A stretch of 20,293 nt of DNA, from the IMG/VR virus record IMGVR_UViG_3300044911_003846; one strand, written 5' to 3'. The notes below the pieces were generated by a model, which was not told the DNA's origin, did not search any database, and saw only the letters and a program-made list of their open reading frames with translations. How positions within the stretch are numbered: position 1 is the stretch's first letter; each line of letters starts with the position of its first letter. Position numbers and translations under genes: made by a program. The DNA is from an uncultured virus (IMG/VR IMGVR_UViG_3300044911_003846) (Duplodnaviria > Heunggongvirae > Uroviricota > Caudoviricetes). Positions 14,409 through 20,293 of this stretch are shown one piece after another.

Positions 14409-15059
14409 TCAGGACCCCAGATAATTAGGTGTCTGCGAAAAAGCAGCAGTTAGCATCGCTGCAGGGTCAAGACTCGATTGCACTTTCGGGGCTTTACCAC
14501 CAGCGATGTTGCGCATGATGAAATCGTCTAAATAGCTGCTTGGTTCGACCTGTGGTTCAGTATCACCAAAAATGATAAAAGTCCTACCACGAGCAGCGGT
14601 CTCTTGCGATGGACTTGGCTGACGACCCTGAAGAGCCTCCGTAAAACTAAACTGATCAGGACCAATAATTTTTTGAACATACCGGTTGGTTTCGGCGTAC
14701 TTCTTACTGGCCTCAACGGCTCCGGGTCCAGCATTGTAAGCGCGTAGACCTTTTTCATAAGCAGCCCTGAGTTGCATTGGGTCACTAACCTGACCTGGTT
14801 GTTTACCACCAAGGTAGGTTTTGATGTAACCCGCCATATTCTTGGCAGCAGCATCTAATGCGGCAACGGGATCATCCGGATTAACACCCCAACCCTTGGC
14901 GGTTGCAGGCATAATCTGAGCAATTCCACGGGCGCCAGCAGAAGAAATAGCCTTCGGATTAAAGCCAGATTCGGCTTGAATTTGGCGCTCAAATACTTGA
15001 GGTAAAAGCCCATATTTTTGGGCTTTTTGACGGGCAATCTCGCGATAGTCGGTAGGCAT
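14409..15059 (-). CDS. Soluble lytic transglycosylase (SLT domain, about 216 aa)
   Basis: QAESGFNPKAISSAGARGIAQIMPATA and AYNAGPG motifs. Likely start is ATG 15059 (MPTDY), not 15218, which overlaps the upstream gene. Confidence 0.92.
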   Translation of the reverse strand: MPTDYREIARQKAQKYGLLPQVFERQIQAESGFNPKAISSAGARGIAQIMPATAKGWGVNPDDPVAALDAAAKNMAGYIKTYLGGKQPGQVSDPMQLRAAYEKGLRAYNAGPGAVEASKKYAETNRYVQKIIGPDQFSFTEALQGRQPSPSQETAARGRTFIIFGDTEPQVEPSSYLDDFIMRNIAGGKAPKVQSSLDPAAMLTAAFSQTPNYLGS

Positions 15060-15081
15060 ACGTATGGCTGAGTACGTGGCG

Positions 15082-15561
15082 TTAGCGGAAATCGGTTGAA
15101 AGCATAAGCCGAGTACCGACAGCAACGTCGGCAGGGCCAGGGAGCGCTTGAATGAATTCAGCGCCTTCTCGGTTGAACCGATACCGAGCTTGCTCGGGAT
15201 TTCGGTAATTGGGGACATACAGATGTAGGGCTAATCGATCCGTCTCGTATAAATAAATCGCCGTCCAAGTTTTCAGCGTGTCTCTGAAATCAGAGGTCGC
15301 AATCGTACGATCAACGTCACCGGCTATGCTCTCAATACGACTACGTGGGACGGTATTATTATTCACGCTGCCAGTCATGTCAGTGCGCTTTTCAGCCTCG
15401 TCGCACCGACCGATCTGTTCGACAATTTTCGAATACCAGAACGAATCTTGGATGTTGTTGACAGCTTCCTCTAGACGCGCTTGGTCACCAGCCGGGACAG
15501 ACGTCAGGTTATAACCCAGGTGCCAGCGGACTTTGGACTTAAGGAAGGTATCGAGTTGCAT
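15082..15561 (-). CDS. Putative head-tail adaptor / head completion protein (159 aa)
   Basis: Helical protein beginning KSKVRWHLGY, located downstream of the capsid genes. Function inferred from position. Confidence 0.55.
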   Translation of the reverse strand: MQLDTFLKSKVRWHLGYNLTSVPAGDQARLEEAVNNIQDSFWYSKIVEQIGRCDEAEKRTDMTGSVNNNTVPRSRIESIAGDVDRTIATSDFRDTLKTWTAIYLYETDRLALHLYVPNYRNPEQARYRFNREGAEFIQALPGPADVAVGTRLMLSTDFR

Positions 15562-17016: not shown

Positions 17017-18162
17017 TCACTCAGTAATGGTAAAGGCACAGGTCACGAAGTCCTTGTTCAGGTTCGCGAAACCGGCGTACAGCTGCCAAATCAGGATGAT
17101 GAAGCGGCTGAAGTCATCGTTGTTGTTGATCAGAACTTGAGCGTTCGGACCACCGATGCCCACACCCACAGCCTGAGGACCGAAGAACAGGGCAGGAGGA
17201 GTGTCGTGAGAAACAGAGCCGTCGCCGTCGTTGATGTCAACGGTGATGGACTTGCTGGGGAAGTTGGTGGATTCGAAGAACCGCACACCTTCAAACACAA
17301 AGCCGGAAGGCATCACGGGTTCGCCAGCCACGAACTGAGCTTGGCCAAACTGACCACCACCATAGATGGCGGCGTTAGGAGCCATGGCGCCCATCAGCGG
17401 GTTGGGAACGCCAGCGCCAGGATAGCGAGCCACTTCACGGAAGCCCTGGTCAGCACGCAGGTCCTTCATGAAGGAAGGATCAGCAATACAACGGTAGTAG
17501 CCGTCGGCGAACACAGGCACGTTGCGCTTGCGGAGGCTCTTCACAACGTTCAGAAGGTCGGTCTTAACGTTGAACTTGAAGCGCTCAGAAGCGTACTCGG
17601 TGGCGGTATAGGTAGCCAGAGTGGTCGAACCAGTCTTGGCGTGGTTGTTCGGATAGTAGTAACCACCCTGGGTGTCGGAGGACTGACCACGGGATTCGGC
17701 CTTGAACAGTTCGTCCAGGAACACGCGGTCGCGCCAGCGGCGGTAGTCATCCAGCAGGGTCAGCGAACCGATGGACTGGTGGAACATGTTGAGGTTCCCG
17801 GTGTCCAGCAGCAGACGCTGAGCGGTCATCAGAGTCTCGCGAGCAATCTTGAAGGTGCTCGGGAGGTTGGCATTGTTCGGGTCAGCAGGACCGGTGTACT
17901 CACGGAGAGACACCAGCACCTTGTCCTTCACGATGGACCGGCTGTTAGCAGTACCGATGGTTTGATCCTGGGTACGCTCACGGTTGGTCTTCGTGCCGGG
18001 GTTACCCCAGAAGCGGTAACGATCCAGCTGAACGGTCTGACCAGGCTGTTTGGTGAAGTCGTGGACGACCACAGGCTCGCAAGCCATTTCCACGATATAA
18101 GCCGGATGGGGGCGGTACAGCTCCGCACCCAACAGCTTGGGAAAGTCGTTATCAATAAACAT
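17017..18162 (-). CDS. Major capsid protein (HK97 fold, 381 aa)
   Basis: Size and position after the scaffold; DFTKQPGQTVQLDRY E-loop-like motif and G.FEGVRFFESTN...FFGPQAVG...DDFSR...W C-terminal pattern; strong codon bias. Confidence 0.88.
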   Translation of the reverse strand: MFIDNDFPKLLGAELYRPHPAYIVEMACEPVVVHDFTKQPGQTVQLDRYRFWGNPGTKTNRERTQDQTIGTANSRSIVKDKVLVSLREYTGPADPNNANLPSTFKIARETLMTAQRLLLDTGNLNMFHQSIGSLTLLDDYRRWRDRVFLDELFKAESRGQSSDTQGGYYYPNNHAKTGSTTLATYTATEYASERFKFNVKTDLLNVVKSLRKRNVPVFADGYYRCIADPSFMKDLRADQGFREVARYPGAGVPNPLMGAMAPNAAIYGGGQFGQAQFVAGEPVMPSGFVFEGVRFFESTNFPSKSITVDINDGDGSVSHDTPPALFFGPQAVGVGIGGPNAQVLINNNDDFSRFIILIWQLYAGFANLNKDFVTCAFTITE

Positions 18163-18566: not shown

Positions 18567-19000
18567 TAGCGGCTACCTTTTTTCTGCGGCATTGGAGGTT
18601 GAATACCCATCGGCAAGGGTGGGACGAGGGGCATGGCCCGCATCACCATATACTGCTCGTTTGTAAATGCCATATTTTGAGCATTTTCAGCAGCTGTTTG
18701 AAACTGCGGAGCCAGTAAACCATTCCGAGGAAGCGGGGATCCGGGGAGGTTAAGTTTGAGATATGCCGAATCAAGATCTCTGGGCATTGGCGGTTGTGGC
18801 GCATTTGGGTTGCCAATAACAGGAGCAGTCGCAACACGAATTGCGGCATACTCATCAATGTTCCCGGATTGAACTTGATTGGCGGTATCACCCGCACCAA
18901 ACATCACAAGGCCGGGAGCGCCAATAGGACCACCAGCAGTCCCGAAACTAGCGAGGAACTGAGCGGCTCTATCCCCAGCACTTGCTTTTTTTGATGCCAT
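18566..19000 (-). CDS. Hypothetical Pro/Ala-rich protein (144 aa)
   Basis: SD AAGGA upstream of the ATG; lies between scaffold and capsid genes. Confidence 0.72.
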   Translation of the reverse strand: MASKKASAGDRAAQFLASFGTAGGPIGAPGLVMFGAGDTANQVQSGNIDEYAAIRVATAPVIGNPNAPQPPMPRDLDSAYLKLNLPGSPLPRNGLLAPQFQTAAENAQNMAFTNEQYMVMRAMPLVPPLPMGIQPPMPQKKGSR

Positions 19001-19014
19001 AACAAATCCTTTTT

Positions 19015-19050
19015 AAATAAAAAGGGGCAGCGTTTGCTACCCCTTATTTT
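19015..19050 (-). terminator. Rho-independent terminator after the scaffold gene (possibly bidirectional)
   Basis: Minus strand AAGGGGTAGC-AAAC-GCTGCCCCTT-TTTATTT; A/T tracts on both sides. Confidence 0.8.
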
Positions 19051-19090
19051 ACGTTTACTAAGTTTAGGAAAATCGGGTTATTTCCGATTA

Positions 19091-20098
19091 TCACTCCATC
19101 ACCAGCAGCTTCTGACGGAACACTTCCGGATTCTGCTGGGCAGCATTCAGATAGCGCCAAGCGTTGGAGGGGTCACGCTCAGCCAGGGAGCCGAAGCTGT
19201 TCCAGAAATCAACGGGATTACCCTGAGCCTGGGGCTGAGGGGGGACCGGCATTTCAGGGCGCTGGGGAGCAACCGGACGCTGGAACTGTTGACCCACGGC
19301 CTGAGCCTGAGCTTGCTGAGGAGCGGCGTAACCGATCTCTTCATCGGGGATCGGGTAGGGGCCGTTCTCGCCGAAGAACTCACAGGTGTAATCAGCGAGC
19401 ACATCGGGGTCGGTCAGGATGGTCTCGTAAGCTTTGTGCTCATTCGACAGTTCCTGAAGCAGATTGACGGCTTCGATCAGCTGATTGTTGGTGGTGATCA
19501 GAGCGTCTTCAAGCTGGCAAGCGTAGTTATTGAGGATCGCCGGAACGTCAGGACCGAAATAATCAATAACCTCAAGACTTGCTTCGCTTACCCCGTTTGC
19601 TCGGAGCTGCTGGGGGCTGATTTCCAGCGAAGTTTGGGAAGAGCCGTTGGAGTAGGCCTGGTTGTTGTTGATCCCAGGCATAGAGGTCGGCATCCCCGCG
19701 TTGCTGTACTGGGGAGCCTGCTGGGAAGCGTAGCTGGCCGGGTCGATTTGAGGGCTCAGATTCGACTGTTGACCCTGGAATGGGAATTGGACGGGCGAAC
19801 TCAGGAGCCCCACCACTCGGTTGAACGCTTCCTTGTACGGATTCTCCGCCTGTTGGGGCGCCTGGGGTGCTTGGGGGTACGACGCTGTAGGGGCGGAGGG
19901 GTACCCGTTCACCCCCATCTGGGCCTGCATTTGCGGGGCTGGGGCCGCCACTTGCTGGTAAGGCGCCACCCATTGGGAAGTCGTTGAAACCGCTGGAGCT
20001 TGTGCCGCCGTCTGCGCCACCGGAGCCCCGTAGCTGATCGGCTGGGTCGGGGATACTTGGGGTGCCGATTGGGTCGGCATTGCGGTATCGGCCTGCAT
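19091..20098 (-). CDS. Putative capsid scaffolding protein (335 aa)
   Basis: SD GAGGT before ATG 20098. Pro/Gln-rich disordered N-terminus, acidic helical/coiled-coil core, position upstream of the capsid gene. Confidence 0.7.
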   Translation of the reverse strand: MQADTAMPTQSAPQVSPTQPISYGAPVAQTAAQAPAVSTTSQWVAPYQQVAAPAPQMQAQMGVNGYPSAPTASYPQAPQAPQQAENPYKEAFNRVVGLLSSPVQFPFQGQQSNLSPQIDPASYASQQAPQYSNAGMPTSMPGINNNQAYSNGSSQTSLEISPQQLRANGVSEASLEVIDYFGPDVPAILNNYACQLEDALITTNNQLIEAVNLLQELSNEHKAYETILTDPDVLADYTCEFFGENGPYPIPDEEIGYAAPQQAQAQAVGQQFQRPVAPQRPEMPVPPQPQAQGNPVDFWNSFGSLAERDPSNAWRYLNAAQQNPEVFRQKLLVME

Positions 20099-20293
20099 AG
20101 GTTACCTCTTTTTGTAGGCTTTCGAGTGTTCGGTAAAGGAAGGGAGTGAGATCAAGTCTCGGATCCGCAGCCATCGGTAAATTCGGTTGCTGCGGATGTG
20201 GTGTCCGCATTTCTAGATTTACGAGATCTATAAATGCGGAGTAGGCCCTCTGTACTTCCCCTACCATTCGGAATGGGAAACCGGAGAGCATGC
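19572..20293 (-). CDS. C-terminal part of a larger gene, probably the portal (begins outside the window); its tail overlaps the scaffold gene
   Basis: Frame is open from the window edge to TGA at 19572. First about 65 aa look globular, the rest is Pro/Gly-rich. The portal call is positional only. Confidence 0.55.
   Translation of the reverse strand, partial: MLSGFPFRMVGEVQRAYSAFIDLVNLEMRTPHPQQPNLPMAADPRLDLTPFLYRTLESLQKEVTYAGRYRNADPIGTPSIPDPADQLRGSGGADGGTSSSGFNDFPMGGALPASGGPSPANAGPDGGERVPLRPYSVVPPSTPGAPTGGESVQGSVQPSGGAPEFARPIPIPGSTVESEPSNRPGQLRFPAGSPVQQRGDADLYAWDQQQPGLLQRLFPNFAGNQPPAAPSKRGKRSKS

Follow-up and report, generated by a model that had tools for sequence, protein, structure and literature searches.

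A half-kilobase out-of-frame overlap between portal-like and putative scaffold genes in S-EIV1-like cyanophages

Long out-of-frame gene overlaps are a textbook feature of tiny phages and RNA viruses. In those of phiX174 (A/B/K and D/E) and MS2 (L) selection maintains both frames, and the more recent protein is usually disordered. In tailed double-stranded DNA (dsDNA) phages such overlaps are, to our knowledge, rare, the chief known case being the spanin genes; there the small Rz1 gene, of ~60 codons, lies wholly within Rz. Protease-scaffold pairs of the lambda C/Nu3 type obtain two head-assembly proteins from shared DNA by internal initiation in the same frame, and lambda G/GT and T7 10A/10B are programmed -1 frameshift pairs, in which a slippery site gives a fusion with a short shared stretch. 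Here we analyse a 20,293-nucleotide (nt) stretch of DNA from an uncultured virus of the Caudoviricetes (IMG/VR record IMGVR_UViG_3300044911_003846; the whole stretch is called the window below), in which the 3' end of a portal-like gene and the 5' half of the following gene, which occupies the scaffold position, share 527 nt in different frames. Very probably the two genes are a genuine overlapping pair of ancient origin, part of the head-assembly module of a lake cyanophage of the S-EIV1 type. Comparison with relatives shows that this same-strand pair keeps each frame open and that purifying selection at the protein level acts on each.

All genes of this part of the window are on the minus strand, as are the features that follow. 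The portal-like gene, represented by its 3' part (19572..20293, from the open reading frame (ORF) listing and its translation), continues past the window end and encodes 753 amino acids (aa) in near-identical contigs; its frame is stop-free from 20291 to a TGA at 19574-19572. The scaffold-position gene (19091..20098) is an ORF of 335 aa that begins at ATG 20098-20096. Between them the dual-coding overlap (19572..20098) holds 175 portal-frame codons and the stop, the scaffold frame being +1 relative to the portal frame, and the ORF analysis reproduced exactly the coordinates, start, one-base offset and codon count proposed in a sequence-only reading of this DNA. At the scaffold start the portal frame reads TAT GCA and the scaffold frame ATG CAG: the portal Tyr codon TAT (20099-20097) and the next G together supply the ATG, a start anchor at 20096..20099. 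Six nt 5' of the ATG, within portal codons, lies a Shine-Dalgarno (SD)-like AAGAGG (20105..20110, with GAGG at 20108-20105), in agreement with the SD noted from the letters alone, and a TAA (20102..20104) closes the scaffold frame one codon before the ATG. Both the SD and the ATG are unpaired in the centroid RNA fold of 20050-20160. At the far end, the portal stop TGA (19572..19574) falls within scaffold codons, just ahead of a conserved helical domain.

What does the shared DNA encode? The portal C-terminal tail (19575..20099, 175 codons) is rich in P, G, S and A, carries short conserved motifs and ends in a basic C-terminus (19575..19601; the last 25 aa have an isoelectric point, pI, of 12), as already remarked upon from the sequence; this basic end recurs among relatives. 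In alignments and per-codon conservation the best-kept scaffold-frame segment of the overlap is 19769..19843, scaffold residues 86-110, which starts with an NP-aromatic-AF motif and includes a predicted helix at 87-100. Part of this DNA also serves the portal-frame motif IPxPGST (19764-19787). A second portal-frame block, ADL ... QPGLLxxLFPNF (19629..19691), with short predicted helices at residues 715-731, is better conserved in the portal than in the scaffold frame.

Set beside the known systems, the locus resembles the spanin genes (lambda Rz/Rz1) in being a same-strand, out-of-frame overlap in a tailed phage, both spanin products being functional. Spanins, however, are lysis genes with no homology to this pair, and here 175 codons at the 3' end of a large gene lie over the 5' half of the gene that follows. 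The genomes of phiX174 and MS2 measure 4-6 kb and mostly overlap, whereas here the long overlap is isolated, and the genome of Synechococcus phage S-EIVl, its cultured relative, is dsDNA of 79 kb. Unlike lambda C/Nu3, the two frames differ and the shared protein parts are unrelated in sequence; unlike lambda G/GT and T7 10A/10B, no conserved slippery site joins the frames, and the downstream frame has its own start. The portions of the spanin survey used here describe the overprinted parts as proline-rich, with little structure and often missed by gene callers, place Rz1 in the +1 frame of Rz, and count 182 embedded, 228 overlapped and 118 separated systems among 528 (PMC6139136). The overlap had been called unusually long for a tailed phage, and the overlap surveys, in the sections drawn on here, bear this out, with DNA-virus overlaps typically of tens of bases: mean overlap lengths per genome have their median at 15.6 nt (interquartile range 8.5-61), the median for +1 overlaps is 14 nt (PMC8903798), and 84% of all overlaps are shorter than 50 nt (PMC7017920). 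Our literature search, which did not include the original S-EIV1 description, found no description of a portal-scaffold overlap.

The homologous locus of S-EIVl (KJ410740; AHV82224, 767 aa, and AHV82225) is the only one from a cultured relative among 50,697 phage records. Its portal-like ORF and a 325-aa ORF in the +1 frame overlap by 554 nt, with the same start anchor and the motifs in both frames, at ~51% portal identity and 41-48% scaffold identity to the window. In the S-EIVl record the downstream gene is given an internal ATG as its start and a length of 133 aa, so the overlap is unannotated there.

The same arrangement was found throughout the wider group. Three scans of viral contigs gave 415, 561 and 585 relatives, of which 80 were kept from each; the window, S-EIVl and the scan loci came to 241, and after 82 duplicates and 7 truncated loci had been set aside 152 unique complete overlaps remained. 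In all 152 the portal and scaffold frames are both stop-free, over overlaps of 506-632 nt, and no homolog has a portal stop near 20095. Over the same DNA the third sense frame has 2-10 stops and the three antisense frames 5-17, 2-9 and 0-8 (zero in 18/152). The scaffold ATG, the SD-like motif and an in-frame stop exactly one codon 5' are each present in 152/152, and the start context is nearly invariant. The TAT+G start anchor occurs in all 152 freshwater loci, in 54 of 56 marine loci and in the distant loci L241, L327 and L328. The portal stop is found at several different places, always behind a basic cluster. Per-codon conservation in the overlap is equal for the two frames (0.68 vs 0.68), and the segments differ in which frame is better kept. 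Relatives at 35-49% portal identity retain the order of the tail motifs and the basic end, the tail motifs are invariant across 16 diverse portals, and the basic end recurs in freshwater, marine and the most distant relatives; on the scaffold side, the NP-aromatic-AF helix motif is kept across three clades.

Is each frame kept for the protein it encodes? Synonymous divergence was compared in 44 sister pairs, chosen on a tree of the portal part outside the overlap among the 138 unique loci that contain both genes in full. For the portal gene it is 0.184 upstream and 0.037 in the tail (ratio 0.20, bootstrap 0.157-0.249), and it is lower inside the overlap in 32 of 33 informative pairs. The scaffold gene behaves likewise: against 0.192 downstream, the overlap has 0.0615, a ratio of 0.32 (bootstrap 0.256-0.385), with the lower value inside the overlap in 31 of 35 pairs. 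Non-synonymous divergence is not lowered (portal 0.0098 upstream and 0.0267 in the tail; scaffold 0.0193 in the overlap and 0.0208 downstream), and a younger age of the segment therefore does not explain the synonymous drop. Counted per codon, divergence at the three site classes of the overlap is 0.045, 0.013 and 0.030, compared with 0.12-0.13 at ordinary third positions. The mostly marine clade, with 21 sister pairs among 53 unique loci, repeats the pattern: synonymous divergence is 0.377 outside and 0.105 inside the overlap for the portal gene, 0.355 and 0.136 for the scaffold gene, and for each gene the drop is seen in 21 of 21 pairs. To tell coding constraint from nucleotide-level constraint, every possible single change was assigned its consequence for the portal and for the scaffold protein, and comparisons were kept to one site class and one mutation type at a time. 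Among transversions at portal third/scaffold second positions, portal-silent changes were fixed in 32 of 8248 cases and changes altering both proteins in 4 of 4236 (odds ratio, OR, 4.1, p 0.0025); at portal first/scaffold third positions the scaffold-silent and both-altering counts were 72/7581 and 4/5276 (OR 12.6, p 1.5e-12). Among transitions, doubly silent changes (19/298) exceeded portal-altering ones (123/6003; OR 3.3, p 3.4e-5). These within-class tests indicate that both proteins are under purifying selection, with omega, pooled by hand from the same counts, at ~0.12 in the portal frame and ~0.06 in the scaffold frame. Aligning related genomes had been suggested as a check on selected overprinting, and that proposal was upheld by the conserved openness of both frames, the depressed synonymous change and the within-class selection in each frame.

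It might nevertheless be that only one frame matters, either because the portal tail is read-through junk or because the scaffold gene starts past the portal stop and its upstream frame is accidental. The shortened gene of the GenBank S-EIVl record is in keeping with this, as are the high guanine-plus-cytosine (GC) content (0.60 across 19501-20000, against 0.41-0.59 in the rest of the window), the ease with which the scaffold frame opens by chance once the tail residues are given (47% of recodings, see below), and a naive ratio of non-synonymous to synonymous change (pN/pS) of 0.73 in the tail. Yet synonymous sites of each frame are down 3-5 fold in two independent clade sets, the within-class tests detect selection on each protein with the other held fixed, the tail motifs persist to 35% portal identity, and the NP-aromatic-AF motif in the scaffold frame spans three clades. 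Nor does a later scaffold start, beyond 19572, agree with the relatives, among which an ATG lies within 60 nt after the portal stop in only 18/152, and no conserved downstream start for the scaffold gene was found among the 152. In the window the distance from the portal stop is 319 nt to the next in-frame ATG and 169 nt to the next GTG; both lie within the conserved helical part, and use of that ATG would remove part of this domain. We regard a single functional frame as very improbable.

How surprising is the double openness in the window taken by itself? When the DNA was recoded with the scaffold protein fixed and the codon usage of the window, the portal frame acquired a mean of 10.5 stops and was open in 0 of 20,000 draws. 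The codon-shuffling check thus rejects chance for the portal frame, and the 'about 20 or more' codon positions at which a stop could have arisen number 23 by count. In the converse recoding, with the portal tail fixed, the scaffold frame was open in 47% of draws, and when synonymous codons were permuted within the region the portal frame stayed open in 3.6% and the scaffold frame in 14.5%. The longest off-frame open run among 10 other genes of the window is 113 codons. In the window alone, the openness of the portal frame is striking and that of the scaffold frame is expected from composition.

A meaningless stop-poor, GC-rich stretch, or an indel introduced by assembly, is a negligible prospect. 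In its favour an antisense ORF of 317 aa (19034-19987, plus strand) is also open in the window, so composition does lower the stop density; but that frame is stop-free in 18/152 relatives, against 152/152 for both sense frames, and not one recoding left the portal frame open. This antisense ORF is a side effect of a composition poor in stops. As for the indel check put forward earlier, comparison over 18900-20293 with contigs from different studies (one DNA run, three RNA-library runs) shows substitutions and no indels, and separate samples yielded contigs with an overlap sequence that is identical or within 0.3% at the protein level. The double frame is unlikely to be an assembly artefact. 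The stretch is present in lake-water metagenomes of many studies, and six metatranscriptome runs contain 20-50% of its words.

Could the two frames instead be joined by a ribosomal frameshift? A +1 shift would give a portal-scaffold chimera and a -1 shift a chimera of the scaffold N-terminal part and the portal tail, in place of or besides independent initiation. The frames are adjacent (+1/-1) and both open for 175 codons, the portal stop lies inside scaffold codons, where a +1 slip would join the whole portal to the helical scaffold domain, and +1 shifting is neither recognisable nor excludable by sequence alone. A fusion, however, needs only a short shared stretch and not ~500 nt open in both frames. 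Slippery -1 heptamers in the scaffold frame occur in 37/152 relatives and are absent from the window. The portal-frame heptamer C_CCA_AAC (window 19638-19632) is present in ~132/152, but a slip there leads into the third, stop-rich frame. The variable position of the portal stop means that no conserved shift site exists there, and all 152 relatives provide the scaffold frame with an ATG, an SD-like motif and an upstream stop of its own; no Rfam element lies in the overlap region. The frameshift fusion that had been raised as a possibility thus found no support, there being no conserved -1 heptamer linking the frames and the scaffold frame being closed one codon before its ATG in every relative, and we consider it quite improbable. 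As a separate observation, C_CCA_AAC lies at the conserved LFPN motif, where a slip would exchange the basic end for other residues. The heptamer probably owes its presence to residues conserved in both frames.

With independent initiation as the preferred reading, how far does the overlapping pair extend? A portal-core search of 1.84 billion representatives recovered 300 proteins at an expect value (E) <= 0.001, and most of the full-length ones, at 690-843 aa, have long tails beyond the core. Three single-protein scans for distant portals gave none, none and one locus (L241), and an alignment query then succeeded. The metagenome scan gave 80 loci in addition to L241; the portal end is off the contig in 18, and 63, mostly marine, could be evaluated. 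In 61 of these 63 a +1-frame ATG ORF of 293-385 aa overlaps the portal end by 434-524 nt (524 nt in L241), and 60/63 of the downstream ORFs match the window protein by BLASTP. L320 is an apparent exception: the anchor there is TAC and there is no ATG, but the frame is still open, and a GTG lies one codon past the usual site. A distant clade at ~30-33% portal identity has a +1-frame downstream ORF in 8/8 loci, with overlaps of 146, 179 and 305-398 nt. Within it (L322-L329 vs L327/L328) the tail may stop right after the first conserved motif (~46-60 aa) or continue. The portal tail looks modular, and from these sequences its stop appears to have moved many times. In a genome collection the overlap is kept in 6/7 evaluable contigs, the portal of L332 being broken. 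A contig of a Prochlorococcus single-cell assembly (L331) has 75% portal identity and a 521-nt overlap, and one from a Leptolyngbya bin (L341) 35% portal identity and a 602-nt overlap; these two contigs hint at a host range beyond Synechococcus.

The label of the upstream gene as a portal has good but not complete support. The window fragment matches phrog_20475, 'virion structural protein', over its whole length including the tail (E 4.9e-35), and the full 753-aa protein of a near-identical contig does so at E 3.7e-208, with the portal family phrog_104 at only E 0.026. Pfam gave no match for the window-type portal protein. Across 11 diverse family members, phrog_20475 was matched by 11/11, portal phrog_64 by 5/11 (best E 4.1e-8), phrog_104 by 2/11 and Pfam SPP1_portal by 4/11 (best E 0.0025). 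A PDB search with the broader portal profile found portal 9gb3 at a weak E of 0.051, and one with the narrower profile found nothing. The AlphaFold model, built from 16 sequences, is of low confidence (mean predicted local distance difference test, pLDDT, 41.7); a Foldseek search with it still brought up almost exclusively phage portals. At E <= 0.001 there were 13 matches (best 1.4e-5), for which TM-scores are low (0.13-0.28), and all 11 that were listed are portals or portal-containing phage assemblies. The gene order agrees, since the portal-like gene precedes the major head protein gene (17017-18162, phrog_1357) in the window and, in S-EIVl, its homolog comes after the annotated large terminase; the window itself stops short of the terminase.

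For the downstream gene, the scaffold label is given by position and physical character. A position between portal and major capsid genes, acidity, helicity and a size of ~300 aa are typical scaffold traits, and this gene has them: it sits between the portal gene and the major head protein gene and encodes an acidic protein (pI 4.1-4.4) of 335 aa, with a Q/A/P/S-rich N-terminal part and, in a low-confidence model, a helical C-terminal part. In that AlphaFold model (mean pLDDT 47.1), residues 1-86 and 101-161 are without secondary structure, a helix occupies 87-100, and everything from 162 on is helical. Pfam and PHROGs hold no family for the window protein or 14 relatives (15 tested), the PDB has no sequence match beyond chance for the scaffold profile, and Foldseek found no PDB match for the low-confidence model. 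The 927 database homologs are all unnamed. The ESM Atlas contains the identical 335-aa protein, whose only listed match is an unnamed viral cluster at 0.78, below lead level. Metagenome gene callers have called the long form of the gene many times, always without a name. The downstream protein is thus a putative scaffold.

How might the two genes be expressed? Ribosomes translating the portal gene would read 175 codons beyond the folded core and add a tail of low complexity that is rich in P, G and S, carries a few short conserved motifs and ends in basic residues. Other ribosomes would initiate independently at ATG 20098, behind the AAGAGG that lies in portal codons, and reading of the shared DNA in the +1 frame would yield the low-complexity, acidic N-terminal half of the next protein, whose helical C-terminal half would be encoded beyond the overlap. 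That both products are made from these starts is likely from the start signals and the conservation described above. The earlier description of the overprinted parts as two disordered regions accords with our low-confidence models: the shared parts of both products are of low complexity and almost without predicted secondary structure, the portal model having none at residues 582-714, which suggests disorder. The overlap would then be restricted to protein parts that seem to need little fixed structure, ending where the helical domain begins, and it probably arose by overprinting in such regions. By analogy with portal C-termini of other phages, the tail may lie inside the capsid, with its basic end touching DNA or core proteins.

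Which frame is the older? Codon usage fits that of the genome less well in the scaffold N-terminal part (mean log2 relative synonymous codon usage -0.144) than in the portal tail (-0.036), and this, together with the 47% ease of opening the scaffold frame, hints at an older tail. The stronger present constraint on the scaffold frame hints at the opposite, a tail that is not the older. On the midpoint-rooted portal tree, overlaps of at least 500 nt lie on both sides of the root.

Several observations weigh against a pair of genes that both encode functional proteins. The proportions left open by chance (47%, 3.6% and 14.5%) make the single-sequence statistics weaker than they look, so that the argument depends on the comparative data. 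Although the overlap confounds its naive pN/pS, the portal tail is the less constrained product. The sister pairs come from metagenome contigs, in which recombination could blur independence. The RNA-library contigs (three studies) span 19124-20293, may derive from DNA and are silent on translation; 18900-19087 is covered by none of them, and their ends do not coincide. Homology support for the scaffold label is absent in Pfam, PHROGs and Foldseek, and both AlphaFold models are of low confidence. Broken copies with interrupted portals also exist (L311 and L332, with L307 likewise interrupted), which may be sequencing errors or dead copies. In L311 there is a shift near the core end and the tail goes on in another frame.

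Beyond the overlap, a terminator-like hairpin with a T run (19022..19045, minus strand; 10 pairs, 6 of them G-C, a consensus match only) lies 46 nt past the scaffold stop and precedes the next small head genes. It is likely the end of a transcription unit, separate from the overlap. Rfam has no family within the overlap, and the only match is a sub-threshold one to sraA at 19012-19104, outside it. Elsewhere in the window the ORF list gives an overlap of 137 nt (15082-15218, minus strand) between the SLT transglycosylase ORF (14409-15218) and the phrog_29158 ORF (15082-15561); the SLT match begins at residue 54, and a later start probably removes most of this overlap. In the S-EIVl record, positions 60784-62010 (L001 7610-8836) carry an annotated minus-strand coding sequence (CDS) and a short plus-strand CDS. 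A 383-aa plus-strand ORF there (L001 7685-8836) is 71% identical to the major head protein of the window, and the capsid gene looks mis-annotated.

A more speculative view, to which we assign a small probability, is that the portal tail and the scaffold N-terminal part cooperate at the portal vertex in procapsid nucleation, and that rare ribosomes changing frame, inside the overlap or at the portal stop, produce a covalent portal-scaffold chimera that seeds assembly. If so, the overlap would couple the evolution and the dosage of both partners. The conserved tail motifs and the basic end are, in any case, candidate contacts inside the capsid.

The texts consulted attribute a notable fraction of marine cyanophage reads to the S-EIV1 group and describe it as a bridge between marine and freshwater genomes (PMC5332604, bioRxiv 10.1101/655167). 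An overlap of ~0.5 kb between two core head-assembly genes is kept in a globally abundant cyanophage lineage, in freshwater, marine and other cyanobacterial contigs. The finding also flags an annotation problem, the record of the only cultured member having a shortened downstream gene. The overlap persists to ~30% portal identity, at lengths of 146-632 nt, and the lineage offers a natural series, rich in sequences, in which to follow how a large DNA genome acquires, extends and retains overprinted genes.

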